A stretch of 24,000 bases of DNA from Kordiimonas marina (GTDB lineage Bacteria; Pseudomonadota; Alphaproteobacteria; Sphingomonadales; Kordiimonadaceae): positions 30,863 through 54,862 of the forward strand of contig NZ_JAINDF010000001.1 in NCBI RefSeq assembly GCF_023006325.1, in the 5' to 3' direction. The notes beneath the pieces were generated by a model. It was given only the letters and a program-made list of their open reading frames with translations, searched no databases and was not told where the DNA came from. Shown here piece by piece: positions 10,039 through 17,407 of the stretch. A program made the position numbers and the translations under genes. Numbering within the stretch: the stretch's first letter is position 1; each line of letters starts with the position of its first letter.

Positions 10039-10641
10039 TCAGTGGACGGCAGCCGCACCCGCGGGTCCATGCAGGTGCACATCGCGCCCGGCGTGACGCC
10101 TGAGAATATCGAGGGCACGCTGCTCCTGACCCCGGCTACCGGTCCTGACCCACAGAAGCAGGCCACCCCAGGATTTTTCCTTGCGCGCCCGGTCCTTCAT
10201 CCGGGTAGCGTGCCGGTAAGCAATCAACCCGCCGCCAAGCGCCCCGATGACGCCGAGCCCGGACACCAGCACAACAGCCTGCCACGGCTCCATGCCATGG
10301 GCTGTCGCAAGCCCCGTCCCCGCGAGCAACAGGATATAGATCGGGGCAAAGACCGTCACCATCAGCGCGGTCGACCGGCTATTCCTGTCGATATAGGGTT
10401 CACGCGGGACGCGGGAATCGTCCTCAAGTTCCGCAACACTCCTGATGCTGCGGCGCAGGGTGGATTCGATTTCTTCCGGGGATACGGGCCGCGAGATGGC
10501 AGCGTTCGAAAAGCCGTGGCTTTCCAGGTCATCCACTGCTTCCTGCAGGTCCTGTTCGGTATCGAAAAGGGCAACCGCTTCACGGTAATTACCGCGCGGG
10601 CCGGTTACATCCCTCCATTCCCAGTGTTCCTTGTCTGCCAT
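10039..10641 (-). CDS. Hypothetical membrane protein: two central TM helices between two small soluble segments
   Basis: Coding-like composition. TM candidates are ALMVTVFAPIYILLLAGTGLA and AVVLVSGLGVIGALGGGLIAY. GGGAGA lies 6 nt upstream of the ATG at 10641. No family was recognised. Confidence 0.6.
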   Translation of the reverse strand: MADKEHWEWRDVTGPRGNYREAVALFDTEQDLQEAVDDLESHGFSNAAISRPVSPEEIESTLRRSIRSVAELEDDSRVPREPYIDRNSRSTALMVTVFAPIYILLLAGTGLATAHGMEPWQAVVLVSGLGVIGALGGGLIAYRHATRMKDRARKEKSWGGLLLWVRTGSRGQEQRALDILRRHAGRDVHLHGPAGAAAVH

Positions 10642-10687
10642 GGTCTATCTCCCATCACAAAACGCCCAACACCGGTCCATTATGCCA

Positions 10688-10727
10688 CAAAAAGGCGTCA
10701 GCCCCGAATCTCATCTTTCGGGGCTGA
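10688..10727 (-). terminator. Rho-independent terminator ending the ars operon
   Basis: An 11-bp stem tcagccccgaa (10698-10708) pairs with ttcggggctga (10717-10727). On the minus strand it is followed by cgccttttt. Confidence 0.7.
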
Positions 10728-10746
10728 TTTCGACTATGCAGTCTGC

Positions 10747-11616
10747 CTAAGCAGGCGGCTCGGTGCCCGGGACCAAAAAGATCGGCATCTCATCCGCCGG
10801 CTTTTCTGCGAGCTGCGCCTCGGTCAGGCGCGCATAGATCTCAATCAGCGTGCCATCCGGGTCCTTAAGCCACAGTTCATGCAGCGGTGTGCCCTTCCAG
10901 GTGGTGCGCGGCGGTTTTTCAACATGGGCGCCGAAGCTGACCGCCCTGTGATAGGCGTCCACCACCGCTTCCCGGTCCGACATACCGACCCCGAGGTGGT
11001 AGAGCGTATCATGGTGCAGCTCCTTACCGTCCGACACCACCACAACGAAGTTCAAATTGAGGTCCGGCCGGATGAAGGTGGCGTAGCGGTGCGTCCAATC
11101 CTTGGGCCAGGTCCCGAGAAGCCAGGCATAAAAGCGCACGCTGGTTGCCAGATCGGCCACACGGATGCTGGCGTGAAACTCGTCCGACGGTGGGCCGTCC
11201 GGCACATCCGCCAGCGCCGCCAATACCTCGATGCGGCCCTTGATCTGGTCCCGCGCCGTGCGGAAGCGCTGACGCAGCTCATCAGCCGATACCGTGCTCT
11301 CCTTGGGCGTGGGGTCCATAATCGGCCAATGGAGCCGCTTTACAGGGCCGGGAAACACCGGGCAGACGGCATCCGCACACAGGGTGACAACAAGGTCCAC
11401 CGCGCCTGCGTCGATGTCGTCTACAGACTTGGATCGCTGGGCCGAAATATCGATCCCCAGCTCAGCCATAACTTCAACCGCCAATGGGTTGACACCTGCG
11501 GGCTCAGACCCCGCGCTTTGCACGGTCACGTCCGACCCCAAAATGTCCCGGGCCAGACCTTCGGCCATTTGGCTACGGGCGGAATTGCCGACACAAAGAA
11601 ACAGAATGTTACGCAT
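10747..11616 (-). CDS. arsC: Fusion protein: LMW-PTP-type arsenate reductase ArsC (aa 1 to about 135) plus ArsI/CadI-like VOC (glyoxalase-fold) domain (aa about 146-289)
   Basis: P-loop CVGNSARS (Cys8), TLCADAVCP (Cys80, Cys85) and HWPIMDP are present. The C-terminal half, [22 protein letters not shown]...YHLGVGM...[15 protein letters not shown], has the VOC beta-alpha-beta pattern with candidate His/His/Glu ligands. AGGAGAG lies upstream of the ATG at 11616. Confidence 0.85.
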
Positions 11617-11637
11617 AACTCTCTCCTATTCGGAAGC

Positions 11638-12690
11638 TCAGGGCGTATCGAACCAGCGTGCTTTCAGCTTGAGCGCCACCGTGACCAGCGAGATCAGGAC
11701 AGGTACCTCGACGAGTGGGCCGATCACCGTTGCGAACGCGATCGGCGACGCGAGCCCGAAGGCGGCGATAGCGACCGCGATCGCCAGCTCGAAATTGTTG
11801 CTGGCTGCGGTGAAGGAAATGGCCGTGGTGCGGGGATAGTCGATCCCCATCAGCTTGCTCATGACGTAACTGACGACGAACATGATGACGAAATAAAGCG
11901 CGAGCGGCACCGCGATCCGGAGCACATCGTGCGGCAGATCGAGCACCATGCCGCCCTTGAGCGAGAACATGGCGACAATGGTGAACAGAAGCGCGATCAA
12001 AGTGACCGGCGCGATCTTCGGCAGGAAATGGCCTTCGTACCAATCCCGGCCCTTCCGCTGCATCAGGGTGCGGCGTGTCAGGTAACCGGCCGCGAAGGGA
12101 ATGCCGAGATAGATCAGAACCGCCTGGGCAATGGTCCAGAAGTCGACATCGACCACCCTGCCCTCAAGCCCGACCATCGGCGGCAGGACGGTGAGGAAAA
12201 ACCAGGCATAGACGCTGAAAAACACGATCTGGAACACCGAGTTGAAGGCCACGAGCGCCGCCACATACTGATTGTTGCCGCCCGCCAACTGGTTCCAGAC
12301 GATGACCATGGCGATACAGCGCGCCAGGCCGATCAGGATCAGACCGGTCATATATTCGGGATAGTCCCGCAAGAAAATGACGGCGAGCGCGAACATCAGC
12401 ACAGGGCCGATCAGCCAGTTCTGGATCAGCGACAGGGCAAGCGCCCGCCGGTCCCTGAACACCATCGGCAGGTCCTCATAATGGACGCGCGCGAGCGGCG
12501 GGAACATCATCAAGATCAGGCCTATGGCGATGGGCACATTGGTGGTGCCAAAAGACAGGCTGTCGAGAAACACAGGCAAGCCCTTGAAGGCCGAGCCAAG
12601 CCCGACACCAAGCGCCATGGCCGCGAAAATCCAGACTGTCAGGTATCGGTCCAGGAAAGAAAGCCGCTTGCGGGGCATGTCAGTGTCCAT
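11638..12690 (-). CDS. acr3: Arsenite efflux transporter, ACR3 family
   Basis: N-terminus [24 protein letters not shown], about 10 hydrophobic segments, 350 aa, and a position between arsR and arsC. Confidence 0.9.
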
Positions 12691-12716
12691 GATCGTTTCC
12701 TTCGTTTATGGCTATC

Positions 12717-13094
12717 TCACGCGGCGCCTTCAGGCCCACACGCGCCGGGCGGGCAGCAGATAGAGCCCATGAGCTCGCCCTGGCTCTCCTGTTCAAACAC
12801 GAGGTTCAGCAATCCTGCGAGCGGGAGAAGTCTGTCCGCATTGAGCGAATAACAGACCCGCGGATGCTCGACCTCGCCCTTGATGATGCCTGCGGCCTTC
12901 AAGATGCGCAGATGCTCGGACACCGTGGATTGGGCCAGCCCGACTTCCTCGACAATATCGCAGCCGATACAAGACTGTTTTGCGAGGAGCACCCGCACGA
13001 TGTGGATACGCGCGGGATGGCCCAGTGCCTTGGCGGTCAAGGCGATGTCGTCGTCGCTATATCCTGCTGTTTCCACTGTCGGCAGCATACTCAT
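12717..13094 (-). CDS. arsR: ArsR/SmtB-family metalloregulator of the ars operon
   Basis: Winged-helix core LGHPARIHIVRVLL...CIGCDIVEEVGLAQSTVSEHLRILKAAGII and a C-terminal ICCPPGAC. AAGAGG lies 5 nt before the ATG at 13094. The track uses GTG 13100. Confidence 0.88.
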   Translation of the reverse strand: MSMLPTVETAGYSDDDIALTAKALGHPARIHIVRVLLAKQSCIGCDIVEEVGLAQSTVSEHLRILKAAGIIKGEVEHPRVCYSLNADRLLPLAGLLNLVFEQESQGELMGSICCPPGACGPEGAA

Positions 13095-13110
13095 GAACAC
13101 CTCTTATTCG

Positions 13111-13132: not shown

Positions 13133-13215
13133 AAGGACGATGCCCTGGAAGGTCAATGATGAAAATGTCGCACCCCTGCCCGGCTGCGGAATTCCATTTC
13201 AGCCGTCATTAGGTC

Positions 13216-13244
13216 TTTAAATTCGGGGCTGGAACGCTTATATC
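13216..13244 (+). promoter_or_regulatory. Possible sigma70-type promoter of the tmRNA gene
   Basis: tttaaa (13216-13221), a 17-nt spacer, then tatatc (13239-13244). It would place the transcript start near 13250, just before the acceptor piece. This rests on a hexamer match only. Confidence 0.3.
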
Positions 13245-13246
13245 AG

Positions 13247-13600
13247 GCGTGCTGGGTAACCAGCTATGGCGATAAACGGCGCATTAAGTAGGTATTGCGG
13301 ACCCGGGGGCGGTACCCGGCGCCTCCACCAGAAGCGGCCAGAAGGCTGAGAACGGATTTCAGACCGTTTCTGATGGGGGCGAAATAGGATCGACGTGTAT
13401 TGAACGGTGTATTGCTCTTCGCTCAGGATGGTACCGCTGTGATGGGCCAAAACAAATAAATGCTAACGACAACAACGTCGAGTTTGCTGTTGCTGCGTAA
13501 GCAGTCCCAGTAAGCTACATTTATAAATTCCTGGGGGTTGACGCCTTCAGGTGGGGTCCGGGCCACCTAGCAACAGAACGGCCCACTTCTATCCTTTTCC
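13247..13600 (+). ncRNA. ssrA: tmRNA (ssrA), circularly permuted two-piece form: acceptor piece, then intervening loop, then coding piece
   Basis: The acceptor piece ends with T-arm ccggg/ggcggta/cccgg (13303-13319), 3' acceptor strand cgcctcc (13320-13326), discriminator A and CCA (13328-13330). The coding piece starts with gggggcg (13375-13381), which pairs perfectly with that strand and includes a G3:U70 pair (13377:13324). It continues with aaataggatcgacg, the analogue of GGAUUCGACG. The tag frame at 13462-13497 (gct aac gac aac aac gtc gag ttt gct gtt gct gcg) gives ANDNNVEFAVAA, followed by taa at 13498-13500 and preceded by aaataaat. The outer ends (13247, 13600) are approximate. Confidence 0.88.
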
Positions 13601-13656
13601 CAGACATTGTTACCTGCCCTGCCCGCCATCCCCGGCGGCGCCTTTATGCTGCCCGC

Positions 13657-13703
13657 AATAAAAAAACCGCCAAAACCGGGTAGCCACGCCCGGTTTTGGC
13701 GGT
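13657..13703 (-). terminator. Strong rho-independent terminator ending the luxI-orf116-phyH transcription unit (may also stop ssrA read-through)
   Basis: A perfect 15-bp stem accgccaaaaccggg (13666-13680) pairs with cccggttttggcggt (13689-13703) around an 8-nt loop. On the minus strand it is followed by ttttttt. Confidence 0.8.
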
Positions 13704-13753
13704 TGGTCTGCCCCGCCGGAGTCCTGAAAGACGGCGGAACGAGAGAGAGCAGT

Positions 13754-14638
13754 TTAGGCGGCCATTTCTTTCACCATGGCCTCGATTTCAGGCGGCAGTA
13801 GGTCGAGGGTCGGCACAGGGCCTTCCGTCACATCGTCCGCCAGGATGCGCATGGGTTCCTGCCCGTCGAGCCAGCCAAGGTTGGGCCGGTGGGCGCGGTA
13901 GCCGATCAGCTCCTGCAGCTCGACCGGAAAGCGCTTCGCCACCTCTGGCGGATAGGCCAGATACTGGTTTTCCGACTGCCGGAGCCAGCCGAGGCTGTAG
14001 GAGATCACCAAGCCGTCCCGCGGCGCCTCAGAACGATTGGCACCGCCACAGTGCAGGGCCGAGCCGAGGTAAAGCACCACATCGCCCGCCTCCATGGTGG
14101 CGTAATAAACGTCGTCGTAACTGGGCTCGCGCGTGAGGTCGTCTTTGTGCGACCGGGGCCAGATGCGCGTTCCGCCGTTTTCCTCGCTGAAGTCACTCAG
14201 GGCCCACATGGCGTTGACCATGAAATGGGTTCCCTGGTGCGGGAACGGGAACATTTCATCGTCGCGGTGCGGTAGTTGTTCCTTCTCGCCCGGTTCGATC
14301 CGGATCGCCTGGGTCAGGTTGATTTGGTAGCGGTCACAGAAGGGGCCGAGTATCTTGTTCATAACCCCGGTGACGACCGGGTGGGTCGCCAGCGCCCATG
14401 ACGCGTCTGATTTTGAGAAAACGCTGCCGAAACGTTTGGTCTGGTAGCCGAAAAACATGCCTTCGCAAGTAGGGTAGCTTTCCAGATGCGGCTTCAGGTC
14501 TTCCTGCAGGCGCGCGAAAGTTTCCTTGAGCGCGGGGAAACGCAGATGCACGAGGCCTTCCGTTTCCAGCTCAGCGGTGATGGCGGCGACCGTCTGGTCG
14601 TCACTGTCACTGACAATAAGGGGTTTCATAGCACTCAT
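13754..14638 (-). CDS. Fe(II)/2-oxoglutarate-dependent dioxygenase, phytanoyl-CoA dioxygenase (PhyH) family
   Basis: Facial-triad candidates are H-x-D in LPHRDDEMF and a distal His in GSALHCGGAN. GGTRIWPRSH and RDGLVISYSLGWLR blocks are typical of PhyH proteins. The preferred start is ATG 14638 (MSAMKPLIV) with GGAGCG upstream. The track start at 14674 is less likely. Confidence 0.85.
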   Translation of the reverse strand: MSAMKPLIVSDSDDQTVAAITAELETEGLVHLRFPALKETFARLQEDLKPHLESYPTCEGMFFGYQTKRFGSVFSKSDASWALATHPVVTGVMNKILGPFCDRYQINLTQAIRIEPGEKEQLPHRDDEMFPFPHQGTHFMVNAMWALSDFSEENGGTRIWPRSHKDDLTREPSYDDVYYATMEAGDVVLYLGSALHCGGANRSEAPRDGLVISYSLGWLRQSENQYLAYPPEVAKRFPVELQELIGYRAHRPNLGWLDGQEPMRILADDVTEGPVPTLDLLPPEIEAMVKEMAA

Positions 14639-14957
14639 CGTTCGCTCCATCCAAAACAGCCTGAATTTCGGCATAGGTCAGGGCAAAAACCCGGTCCTCA
14701 TAGCTCATGCCGGCAACGGCATAGAGAATGCGGGCGATCGCCTGCTGGACCCGGGCATGGATCGGCAGGGCGGCTTCTTCCCCATCGGGGGCAGTGCCAT
14801 GGTCGACGTCGGCAACATCGGCGAGCCGTTCGACCTTGGCCGCGATGGCTTCAACCTTGCTGCCGTCCAACTGACCGAGAAGGAAACCGAGCTGATTGGC
14901 TGCGCCGCTGAGATCAAGCGGGGTCGCCTGATTGAATTCCGCTGTGAACACGCTCAT
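14607..14957 (-). CDS. Orphan acidic 116-aa protein of unknown function, translationally coupled to the luxI homologue
   Basis: Its ATG overlaps the luxI TGA (ATGA on the minus strand, 14954-14957) and GGAGG lies 7 nt upstream. Third-codon positions are mostly G/C/T, as in neighbouring genes. Both competing plus-strand ORFs are Arg-rich or otherwise non-protein-like. No motif was recognised. The C-terminus is ..DGANDECYETPYCQ. Confidence 0.65.
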   Translation of the reverse strand: MSVFTAEFNQATPLDLSGAANQLGFLLGQLDGSKVEAIAAKVERLADVADVDHGTAPDGEEAALPIHARVQQAIARILYAVAGMSYEDRVFALTYAEIQAVLDGANDECYETPYCQ

Positions 14958-15589
14958 ACCGCAACCTCCAATTCAGGCACCAATGTGGGTGCGTTATAAA
15001 GAACGCTGCCTTCGACACCGCGGGTGGCGCAGACAGACTGATAATGGCTTTCGTCAAGGTCGATCTGGAAGGCGAGGACCACCTCGCCATCGACGACGTC
15101 CGGCAGGCCGAGCGGCGTAACGTTCCACCCAGCTTTCAAAATCGTTGGGAACAGCACCATGCTGGCCACGCAGGTCACGTGGCGGATGTCATGCATCAGG
15201 CCATATTCGAACAGACCGCAGACAAGCTCGCTGACCGTCCGGTCGCGTTCGAGCAGCAGATGACGCCCTGTCAGGCTGTAAAAGCGGGAAACTTCCCAGG
15301 TATCGGCTGCCGTCGGCACCTTGTCGGCGCAGAGGTTCGGGAAAGCTTCACCCAGCAGGTGCGGCTTCTCCGTCGGCAGCAGGCGCATGGCCCCCTTGAG
15401 GAGACCCTTGTCGTTGATCGAGAGGAGGTAAATGGTTTCCGCATGGTCGAAACGGTCGCGCTCGATCCCTTTGGCGCAATCGAGGCTCCAGCCCATTTTT
15501 TCGACAAAAACCTCGTACCGCTGTTGCCAGAGCTGGCGCAAGTAACTGCGGTATTCAGACCGGTTTACATCACTGACAACATGGATCAT
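14954..15589 (-). CDS. luxI: LuxI-family autoinducer (acyl-homoserine-lactone) synthase
   Basis: Family-invariant pattern is present: R..VF...MGW, then IERDRFD (the E, D, D positions), RLLPT and WEVSRF, and the C-terminal block VTCVASMVLFPTILKAGW...GE.V. GGAGG lies 5 nt before the ATG at 15589 (MIHVVSD...). The symbol is family-level only. Confidence 0.88.
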   Translation of the reverse strand: MIHVVSDVNRSEYRSYLRQLWQQRYEVFVEKMGWSLDCAKGIERDRFDHAETIYLLSINDKGLLKGAMRLLPTEKPHLLGEAFPNLCADKVPTAADTWEVSRFYSLTGRHLLLERDRTVSELVCGLFEYGLMHDIRHVTCVASMVLFPTILKAGWNVTPLGLPDVVDGEVVLAFQIDLDESHYQSVCATRGVEGSVLYNAPTLVPELEVAV

Positions 15590-15637
15590 GCGGACCTCCA
15601 TCAATATGTGGACGCCCCATGATCAAACATTCATTTT

Positions 15638-15649
15638 AATAGGCCTATT
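15638..15649. promoter_or_regulatory. Perfect 12-bp palindrome in the luxR-luxI spacer
   Basis: aataggcctatt is centred about 55 nt upstream of the luxI ATG. Its function is unknown. Confidence 0.3.
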
Positions 15650-15676
15650 GGCCGATCAGACTAGTTTTCGGAAAGT

Positions 15677-15693
15677 GGTAGCATAGTGCTACC
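15677..15693. promoter_or_regulatory. lux-box-like 17-bp inverted repeat (7-3-7) overlapping the luxR stop codon
   Basis: ggtagca-tag-tgctacc is centred about 96 nt upstream of the luxI ATG. Its dyad symmetry and length resemble LuxR-type binding sites. The sequence does not match the classical lux or tra boxes. Confidence 0.4.
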
Positions 15694-16426
15694 TATAGTG
15701 AATCAGGTTCGAGAGGAACGCCTTCACCACAGCCTGTACCCTTGTATGCACGCCAAGCTTTACCTTGGCGCTTTCCACATGGTTATGGACCGTGCGTTCG
15801 GCGATCGACAGAATCGCGGAAATCTCCCAGTCCGTCTTGCCCGCGGCCACCCATTCCAGGCATTCGCGTTCCCGGGTTGTCAGCTTGGTGATCGGCTCCA
15901 CCTGGCCATCGTTCTTATATTTCAGCCTGAGCGCCGCATCATGCAGATAAACGCTCATGAGATGGATGGCATGTTCAGCCGCCGGGTCGACATCCCGGTT
16001 TTCCCCGACCACATTCACAGCCCCTGGGAAAGCGCCAACCACATGGATCGGGACCGTCACGCCATACAGAAGCCCGGCATCTTCGGCCTCACTGAAAATC
16101 TCGCTCTGCTGGGCGTTCATGCCCTTGGTGACAATCTCGTTCTCCCAGTTGAACGGCAAATGCTGCTTCAAAGACACCTGCAGAATGCGGTCTTTGCGCT
16201 CATAGCTGTTCTCGAGATAATAATTGGTCCAGTCCTCGGGGTAATCGGCCAGGAAGACGGCCCCTTCCGGCATGGAGCCGAACTCGACGCAGGAGACGCA
16301 GGCATAATGTTCGAAGCCCAGCTTGCGCGCCGTATTCTGAAATGAACGGCCCAGGTCGTCCAAATTGTCGATCGTTTTGGACGATTCAATAAATTCCATT
16401 GCCAGTTGGAAATACTCAAGGTTCAT
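15689..16426 (-). CDS. luxR: LuxR-family transcriptional regulator (autoinducer-binding domain plus GerE-type HTH)
   Basis: Ligand-pocket residues have canonical spacing: W..YY (W57/Y61 equivalents), D at +13, W at +28 (LPFNWEN), and YGVTVPIH. The C-terminal HTH is LTTRERECLEWVAAGKTDWEISAILSIAERTVHNHVESAKVKLGV. The start is taken as MNLEYFQL (16426). The track start at 16534 adds 36 implausible residues. The symbol is family-level only. Confidence 0.88.
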   Translation of the reverse strand: MNLEYFQLAMEFIESSKTIDNLDDLGRSFQNTARKLGFEHYACVSCVEFGSMPEGAVFLADYPEDWTNYYLENSYERKDRILQVSLKQHLPFNWENEIVTKGMNAQQSEIFSEAEDAGLLYGVTVPIHVVGAFPGAVNVVGENRDVDPAAEHAIHLMSVYLHDAALRLKYKNDGQVEPITKLTTRERECLEWVAAGKTDWEISAILSIAERTVHNHVESAKVKLGVHTRVQAVVKAFLSNLIHYR

Positions 16427-16858
16427 AAAGGCAATATAGATGCCTGGGCATCTTCCCTGTTTTTCCGCCCCAGAAGACGGCCTACACCAAACCCGCTCAA
16501 ACACTTGTCTGGCCTCTGCCCCCAGGCCCCTCACCCAGGTTTCAGCGCCGAAGCCTCACCAAAACTGGCAAGAATTCCACTAAAGTGACAATTGACAGGT
16601 TAATAACGATTTAACCGCCTGCTTATGAAACAATCTACACTTTCAATTATGTCTTGCAAACATCCGCCGCGCCAAAACCTGTGTTTGTGCCCTTCCCTGA
16701 CGGGCGAAAAGGACCGCTCATGAAGGTCCGCCCCCACCGCCCACCAGCACACAACCTGCCTCAGGGTCGTTTTTTTCCTTCACGACCCGGAAAGCTCGTT
16801 TTATAAGGGGCGCAATTGGGCTTGACTGCCGCATTTTCAGAAAAGTTTGGGTTACCGC

Positions 16859-17407
16859 ATGTCAGACACCTACATCGACTATGACGCCAAAGTGCAGGAT
16901 GCCCTGCGCGGTGTCGTCCGTTCAGTCCTTCAGGACACCGAGCGTGACGGCCTCATGGGCGAGCATCATTTCTATATCGCCTTCAAGACCCAGGCGCCCG
17001 GCGTCAATATCCCCGCGAGCCTGATGAGCCGCTTCCCCGATGAGATGACCATCGTGCTCCAGCATAAATTCTGGGGGCTGAAGGTCTATGACGACCGGTT
17101 CGAGGTCGGCCTTTCCTTCAATCAGAAGCCGGAACATCTGGAGATCCCGTTCGATGCCGTGGTCGGCTTTGTCGACCCCAGCGTCCAGTTCGCGCTTCAG
17201 TTCCATGATGAAGGCGATGAAATCGACGCGGAAGAATTTGGCGAGAACGGCGAAATCGAGGATGGCGACATCGTTGCCGAGTTCGCCCCAGCCGTGGCCG
17301 AAGCGCCTGAAGCCAACGCACCGCAGGATAAAACCCCGGTAGACACCCCCCCGAGCAACGGCGATGGCGGCAATGTCGTCACGCTCGACGCTTTCCGCAA
17401 AAAATAA
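16859..17407 (+). CDS. sspB: ClpXP adaptor SspB, alphaproteobacterial type
   Basis: YDAKVQDALRGVVRSVLQDT...GEHHFYIAFKTQAPGVNIP..L..RFPDEMTIVLQHKFWGLKV..DRFEVGLSFN..PEHLEIPFDAVVGFVDPSV.FALQF closely resembles Caulobacter SspB-alpha as recalled from memory. It also has an acidic linker and a C-terminal tail VVTLDAFRKK that looks like a ClpX-binding peptide. Confidence 0.85.
   Translation: MSDTYIDYDAKVQDALRGVVRSVLQDTERDGLMGEHHFYIAFKTQAPGVNIPASLMSRFPDEMTIVLQHKFWGLKVYDDRFEVGLSFNQKPEHLEIPFDAVVGFVDPSVQFALQFHDEGDEIDAEEFGENGEIEDGDIVAEFAPAVAEAPEANAPQDKTPVDTPPSNGDGGNVVTLDAFRKK

Follow-up and report, generated by a model that had tools for sequence, protein, structure and literature searches.

A widespread LuxI-PhyH gene pair and a clade-restricted family of small LuxI-linked proteins in a chromosomal quorum-sensing locus of Kordiimonas marina

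The gene order luxR-luxI-phyH was published repeatedly between 2010 and 2016 (Hao 2010; Gan 2013, 2015, 2016). In Novosphingobium, phyH adjoins four of five novI genes (PMC3704786), and in Sphingomonadaceae luxR-luxI-phyH was named within "topology T," luxR-luxR-luxI-phyH-X-virB (PMC4288048). From transposon data on a metagenomic clone that all three later papers cite, Hao et al. (2010) proposed, according to PMC3704786, that phyH belongs to a quorum-sensing (QS)-regulated operon, and the NovI enzymes of sphingomonads make ordinary acyl-homoserine lactones (AHLs) when expressed alone (PMC5012321). Here we analyzed a related locus in a stretch of 24,000 nucleotides from Kordiimonas marina (contig NZ_JAINDF010000001.1, positions 30,863 to 54,862; referred to below as the window), in which genes for a LuxR-type receptor and a LuxI-type synthase are followed by a small open reading frame (ORF), orf116, and by phyH, which encodes a PhyH-type Fe(II)/2-oxoglutarate (2OG) oxygenase. 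The locus combines a widespread LuxI-PhyH pair with a clade-restricted, LuxI-linked small protein. Its phyH follows luxI on the same strand, like those of the LuxI-linked PhyH subfamily, and the encoded protein is at least ~40% identical to sphingomonad members, with the intervening orf116 as the sole difference. The original prediction, made from this sequence, knew of no characterized module of this kind; the reaction of the enzyme is still undescribed, and a literature search for a characterized AHL-acting 2OG oxygenase or a characterization of a LuxI-linked PhyH enzyme found none, but the synteny itself was already in print. New here are the breadth of the linkage, a reproducible natural fusion, the small-protein family, and the occurrence of loci with and without phyH at one and the same chromosomal site.

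The four genes are consecutive and run head to tail on the minus strand (Table 1), and a check with Pfam hidden Markov models (HMMs) upheld the families and coordinates originally given for them. The luxI stop codon and the orf116 start codon overlap as ATGA at 14954 to 14957, and phyH starts at 14638, behind a GGAG and 32 nt inside orf116; both of these previously noted overlaps are visible in the sequence, and the three distal genes overlap one another. The phyH start is supported by five relatives that share the 294-aa length of the protein. The orf116 and PhyH sequences are each 100% identical to K. marina proteins. A single strong terminator had been proposed to follow the last gene, and this was borne out: its stem (13704 to 13665), directly 3' of phyH, measures 16 bp with 10 G-C pairs, encloses an 8-nt loop, and is followed by a T-run, and it is the sole such minus-strand site between luxI and the transfer-messenger RNA (tmRNA) gene. 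The overlaps and the one terminator support the translational coupling first proposed for luxI-orf116-phyH, which has, as read from the sequence, the layout of a translationally coupled operon.

We scanned one genome per species with a PhyH profile and obtained 80 loci, or 83 when loci fetched earlier were included. In 75 of these 83 loci, phyH is directly preceded by luxI in the same orientation. The gap between the two genes has a median of ~12 nt, overlaps of 4 or 8 nt are common, and the next gene upstream of luxI is usually luxR. The scan loci come from Kordiimonas, Emcibacter, Hyphomonadaceae/Terricaulis, Caulobacteraceae, Parvibaculum, Sphingomonadales, and Rhodospirillales and, outside the alphaproteobacteria, from gammaproteobacterial Steroidobacteraceae and a Hydrogenophilaceae metagenome-assembled genome (MAG), with betaproteobacterial groups included overall. 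Annotated plasmids of Novosphingobium, Sphingobium, and Variovorax have the same luxR-luxI-phyH layout and encode PhyH proteins 39 to 46% identical to that of K. marina, which places the K. marina protein with the published sphingomonad family. Pairwise distances of LuxI and PhyH are correlated (r = 0.90; Mantel test, 0 of 999 permutations reach this value), as are those of LuxI and LuxR (0.91), and of the three proteins, PhyH has diverged least. We also found three mutually divergent natural LuxI-PhyH fusions with Autoind_synth and PhyH domains, P0101 (513 aa), P0124 (512 aa), and P0128 (549 aa), the latter two each at most 40% identical to P0101. Seven sequencing runs gave identical assemblies of P0128, and wherever a contig extends far enough, luxR is seen upstream. 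On these three counts, the earlier proposal that PhyH is functionally tied to LuxI passed the check for co-conservation.

Some loci depart from this arrangement or extend it. In two Rhodospirillales/alphaproteobacterial MAGs (L015, 1715-6828; L016, 1204-4630), phyH is head to head with luxI, which is followed by genes for a cytochrome P450 and an AMP-binding acyl-coenzyme A (acyl-CoA) ligase in L015 and by a P450 gene in L016; such a setting is typical of tailored signals, and these may be more elaborate clusters for signal tailoring. On plasmid pSLPG of Sphingobium sp. SYK-6 (L114, 1231-7801), a luxR(-luxR)-luxI-phyH unit runs straight into virB/type IV secretion system (T4SS) or other transfer-related genes, and the unit on a Variovorax plasmid (L113) continues likewise, which suggests quorum control of conjugation on these plasmids, with phyH within that operon.

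The K. marina PhyH protein scores 78 bits against PF05721, where the cutoff is 22. The HxD...H facial triad that had been noted in it (H124, D126, and H196) is invariant across 26 relatives, as is the 2OG-binding R207, and its AlphaFold2 (AF2) model is a jelly-roll with a predicted local distance difference test (pLDDT) score of 87. The nearest sequences and folds are TlxJ, SptF, AndA, AsqJ, PrhA, FtmOx1, EasH, and DhiD (template modeling [TM] scores of 0.70 to 0.77, 20 to 27% identity, fold-match E values of ~1e-20). These oxygenases tailor free hydrophobic metabolites, and no CoA-ester hydroxylases are among the top matches. None of the curated NCBIfam models matched, so that, with neighbors of this type and no equivalog, we rejected assignment as a true phytanoyl-CoA hydroxylase or as an ectoine hydroxylase; by sequence, the protein is a PhyH-fold enzyme but no orthologue of phytanoyl-CoA hydroxylase. 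A close characterized orthologue with an unrelated substrate was not found either, the nearest solved structures being at most 27% identical. Among more distant relatives, P0207 and P0213 are fused to an SCP2 lipid-carrier domain, and P0125 and P0127 are tandem PhyH-PhyH proteins of ~600 to 650 aa.

The upstream genes encode a receptor and a synthase of the expected families. LuxR has both the autoinducer-binding and the helix-turn-helix domain of AHL receptors, and relatives of identical 245-aa length occur in L003 and L005. LuxI, counted from an ATG with GGAGG before it, scores 99 bits against a cutoff of 24 for its family. In two alignments, R24, W34, E43, D45, D48, R69, and R102 are invariant, as had been predicted for the LuxI signature, with F28 only nearly so. 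The nearest solved structures are RpaI (3e-26), BjaI (1.4e-23), and TofI (1.3e-22), but the scores of the top CoA-dependent relative and of TofI, which is of the acyl carrier protein (ACP) type, are too close (96 versus 84 bits), and we dropped assignment of LuxI to either type.

A palindrome of 18 to 20 bp, often centered on CTGATCAG, lies ~75 nt upstream of luxI in related loci, and a perfect example, ACCTGCCTAACTAGGCAGGT, is found in Emcibacter. We scored these palindromes with a custom scan, as an inverted-repeat tool had missed the short K. marina one. In the region from -120 to -31, 48% of 73 related loci have a palindrome pairing in at least 8 of 9 arm positions, compared to 4% of control windows, and the palindromes cluster at -71 to -80. 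The K. marina palindrome is weaker (7/9) and begins 67 nt upstream of the luxI ATG. The operon is probably autoinduced by LuxR through this element. Between luxR and sspB, at 16581 to 16602 and ~155 to 175 nt upstream of the luxR start, there is a further, overlapping palindrome, TAAAGTGACAATTG/CAATTGACAGGTTA, which could be an operator.

The original prediction described the 116-aa protein as an orphan. It has no match in Pfam or NCBIfam, and an initial search of 5.8 billion proteins found only three relatives; however, short ORFs sharing a core were seen in longer luxI-phyH gaps, and a profile search of the same database enlarged the family to 21 significant members of 54 to 121 aa. Their common core is a two-helix segment of ~35 residues (…QEWvARfxYAxAxL(S/P)P…EHxLxLxE) in which A75, R76, Y79, and A80 are invariant across the 21 members, with Q replacing R76 in long members found later. 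When an HMM of the family was run against the 11,302 ORFs of all loci, only luxI-operon ORFs matched, in 20 loci, with E values of 1e-13 to 1e-27 and none between 3e-13 and 10. The ratio of nonsynonymous to synonymous substitution (dN/dS) is ~0.20 for orf116 at a dS of 0.47, a sign of purifying selection, and 0.03 for luxI and phyH. This ratio, together with homologues in 20 loci, indicates from sequence that orf116 is a real gene and not a chance ORF. In the AF2 model (pLDDT 79), a four-helix unit is built from two helical hairpins, and the loop and the tail are disordered. The short members of the family contain one hairpin and could pair into a bundle; an internal duplication of the hairpin is suggestive only (hhalign probability of 51%, E = 1.5e-4). 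A Foldseek search of the PDB found no solved relative of this fold (best E value of ~4).

The distribution of the two downstream genes shows that they are independent of each other. LuxI relatives were also scanned with a narrow LuxI alignment, which returned 14 loci. At every locus inspected, the small ORF sits in the luxI operon: between luxI and phyH in K. marina and eight other loci (L003, L007, L008, L009-L012, and L088), after phyH in L090, and behind luxI without phyH in six loci (L001, L092, L093, L094, L095, and L102). Conversely, most PhyH-linked loci, with their gap of ~12 nt, have no room for it between luxI and phyH. The gene-neighborhood analysis that had been suggested for LuxI homologues thus found luxI and phyH, but not all three genes together, to be co-conserved. 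The three-gene synthase module of the original prediction does not hold, since most LuxI-PhyH loci lack the small ORF and six loci with the small ORF lack phyH. PhyH and orf116 are two separate accessories and form no obligate three-gene module.

This independence is also seen at a single chromosomal site. Five relatives (L001, L008, L093, L094, and L102) share with K. marina the series sspB, QS cassette, convergent tmRNA gene, gene for a 200-aa protein, and thyA. In four of the five (all except L008), phyH is missing, and luxI and the small ORF are kept. The gene sspB, which encodes an adaptor for ssrA-tagged proteins, flanks luxR in these five loci and in L095. In K. marina, the cassette is placed between sspB and ssrA, within 13212 to 17407, and this placement is kept in the five relatives. 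We considered and rejected a tmRNA-associated genomic island, as there is no integrase and the sspB/QS/ssrA layout is common to the five relatives, so that the cassette is ancestral at this site.

Table 1. Features of the QS locus and its surroundings in the window
Feature	Position	Strand	Evidence
luxR-type AHL receptor/transcription factor, 245 aa	15689..16426	-	Autoind_bind (PF03472) 2.8e-26, GerE (PF00196) 2.4e-19
Candidate lux-box-like palindrome ATCGGCCAATAGGCCTAT	15639..15656	-	7/9 arm positions pair; putative operator
luxI-type AHL synthase, 211 aa, first gene of the operon	14954..15589	-	Autoind_synth (PF00765) 3.1e-28
orf116, small helical protein, new LuxI-linked family	14607..14957	-	no Pfam/NCBIfam match
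PhyH-type Fe(II)/2OG oxygenase, 294 aa, LuxI-linked subfamily	13754..14638	-	PF05721 1.6e-21
Intrinsic terminator closing luxI-orf116-phyH	13655..13704	-	16-bp stem, 8-nt loop, T-run
Alphaproteobacterial two-piece tmRNA gene ssrA, convergent with the operon	13212..13587	+	RF01849 244.9 bits, ARAGORN
sspB, divergent from luxR, far side of the conserved site	16847..17407	+	Pfam SspB 4.8e-45
arsR	12717-13100	-	Pfam
Acr3/SBF-type transporter	11638-12690	-	Pfam
Low-molecular-weight (LMW)-phosphatase-type ArsC fused to a glyoxalase domain	10747-11616	-	Pfam

In K. marina, an arsenic-resistance cluster (10747 to 13100) lies between the tmRNA gene and the gene for the 200-aa protein. Because the 200-aa gene directly follows the tmRNA gene in the five relatives, the cluster looks like an insertion specific to the K. 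marina genome. A plus-strand ORF of 936 aa that is antisense to the ars genes (10042-12852) is almost certainly spurious, as the minus-strand genes have clear Pfam matches. The 200-aa protein (10039 to 10641) adjoins thyA, has no Pfam domain, and is 61 to 70% identical in the five relatives.

PhyH most likely acts in the LuxI pathway, on a substrate and through a reaction that we infer from these patterns. We tentatively favor, as a reading with a real but not commanding chance of being right, a chromosomal LuxR/LuxI circuit in which PhyH oxidizes the released AHL and orf116 modulates the circuit. LuxR would autoinduce luxI-orf116-phyH through the palindrome upstream of luxI, LuxI would release an AHL, PhyH would oxidize it by hydroxylation or desaturation, and the cell would emit the modified signal. 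Oxidation of the released AHL is suggested by the near-exclusive linkage, the fusions, the free-metabolite neighbors of PhyH, and the normal AHLs made by sphingomonad LuxI enzymes alone; since NovI needs no partner for this, PhyH would not be needed to supply the acyl donor. The small protein is most likely a modulator of the QS circuit because it tracks luxI and not phyH, and, like a small anti-activator, it would work through binding to LuxR or LuxI.

Several observations weigh against this reading. The main one is the repeated loss of phyH in close relatives whose LuxR is still 74 to 76% identical, which fits a dispensable accessory more easily than an enzyme that makes the cognate ligand and is better explained by a turnover enzyme or by cargo. 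Shared species phylogeny could account for part of the LuxI-PhyH distance correlation. The fusions are supportive of the link but are not taken as proof, because P0101 and P0124 are singletons and genes with a 4-nt overlap can be fused by single indels. The K. marina palindrome is weak, no likeness of orf116 to any known regulator was detected in sequence or fold (Pfam, NCBIfam, and Foldseek), and, to our knowledge, no unusual oxidized AHL has been reported from phyH-carrying sphingomonads.

The alternative that survives best, although we think it unlikely, is that PhyH is a quorum-regulated output enzyme for an unrelated substrate, like trb behind traI, and that orf116 is likewise unrelated cargo. 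Regulated cargo is frequent in luxI operons, the Sphingobium SYK-6 unit continues into virB conjugation genes, and the proposal of Hao et al. (2010), according to PMC3704786, went no further than QS-regulated operon membership for phyH. Cargo differs by lineage, yet phyH adjoins luxI in the great majority of loci across several orders and many genomic contexts and is sometimes fused to it.

A built-in signal turnover function, in which PhyH is co-induced with luxI and oxidizes the AHL to an inactive form for negative feedback or signal resetting, seems to us rather improbable. One oxygenase, P450 BM-3, is known to inactivate AHLs by oxidation, phyH is in the luxI operon with a coupled layout and one terminator, and its dispensability in close relatives at the same site is what is expected of a homeostatic accessory. 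However, a synthase fused to the destroyer of its own product would be futile, and the tight long-term co-inheritance of a protein more conserved than LuxI and LuxR looks more biosynthetic.

We give an equally small chance to a role before LuxI, in which PhyH hydroxylates or desaturates an acyl-CoA that a CoA-dependent LuxI takes as an unusual donor. This role would account for the acyl-CoA ligase within the L015 luxI operon, for the fusion of more distant relatives to SCP2, a lipid/acyl-CoA carrier domain, and for the Pfam placement of the protein in a family whose true phytanoyl-CoA hydroxylase works on acyl-CoA. The CoA dependence of RpaI and BjaI, the best-scoring solved LuxI relatives, also favors it, but by only a small margin over TofI, while the nearest PhyH neighbors use free metabolites instead of CoA esters and sphingomonad LuxI enzymes from phyH loci give ordinary AHLs without PhyH (PMC5012321).

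That orf116 instead serves PhyH as a partner (an accessory subunit or a carrier) or as a substrate (the precursor of a ribosomally synthesized and post-translationally modified peptide [RiPP] whose tail, DECYETPYCQ, is hydroxylated) is very unlikely and is largely excluded by its distribution. In favor of such a role, the gene sits between luxI and phyH, overlaps both, and encodes a predicted disordered tail with two Cys residues. Against it, the helical core is conserved but the tail is not, as it differs among family members and is missing from some; six loci keep the small ORF although they lack phyH, and PhyH occurs without it in most clades.

The fatty-acid pool, and no dedicated tailoring enzyme, is thought to supply the decorations of AHLs. 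In several proteobacterial orders and on conjugative plasmids, LuxI is accompanied by an oxygenase that co-evolves and overlaps with it and at times is fused to it, which points to a step still missing from AHL chemistry, one that would escape standard biosensor and targeted mass spectrometry screens. The role of phyH has been in question since its synteny was first noticed in 2010 to 2013, and the K. marina locus makes this question directly testable: one and the same site occurs naturally with and without phyH, there are natural fusions, and the operon is compact, with three genes. A bolder form of our preferred reading, which we regard as possible but doubtful, is that LuxI-linked PhyH proteins are dedicated tailoring enzymes that make an unrecognized class of oxidized AHLs and that the orf116 family consists of new small QS modulators. 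The products would be, for example, AHLs in which positions other than C3, or the lactone ring, are hydroxylated or desaturated, and the hosts would be Kordiimonadales, Emcibacterales, Hyphomonadaceae, Sphingomonadales, Steroidobacteraceae, and conjugative plasmids. The orf116 family is a candidate for a new class of regulators of LuxR/LuxI circuits.

Compared to known systems, each part of the K. marina locus has a partial counterpart. The anti-activators TraM and QslA resemble orf116 only in how they would work, as helical proteins of ~100 aa or less encoded and expressed within a QS locus; a test for homology to them was negative, and with no Pfam match and no fold match (Foldseek E value of ~4), orf116 belongs to neither family. 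The tailoring oxygenases nearest to PhyH share its fold and its HxD...H iron site and use hydrophobic free metabolites, as PhyH probably does, but they are 20 to 27% identical and mostly fungal, and their reactions range over hydroxylation, desaturation, ring rearrangement, and endoperoxide formation. Because these reactions are so varied, their chemistry cannot be transferred to the K. marina enzyme. RpaI and BjaI make non-fatty-acyl signals from CoA donors (p-coumaroyl-homoserine lactone and isovaleryl-homoserine lactone, respectively), but they score barely above the ACP-type TofI against K. marina LuxI, which allows no CoA assignment, and we know of no oxygenase partner of either enzyme. 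In traI-trb operons, as in K. marina, luxI leads a multigene unit behind a LuxR-type operator-like palindrome; the cargo there is variable, whereas the genes downstream of luxI in K. marina, one for an oxygenase and one for a small protein, have evolved together with the synthase. The closest system is novR-novI-phyH of Sphingomonadaceae and the Hao clone, which is alike in gene order, orientation, and PhyH subfamily (39 to 46% identity over more than 90% of the protein). In the sphingomonads, novI and phyH overlap by 4 nt. The K. marina module differs in being chromosomal, in its position between sspB and ssrA in a member of the Kordiimonadales with no mobile-element or T4SS genes nearby, and in its extra gene for a small protein between luxI and phyH.

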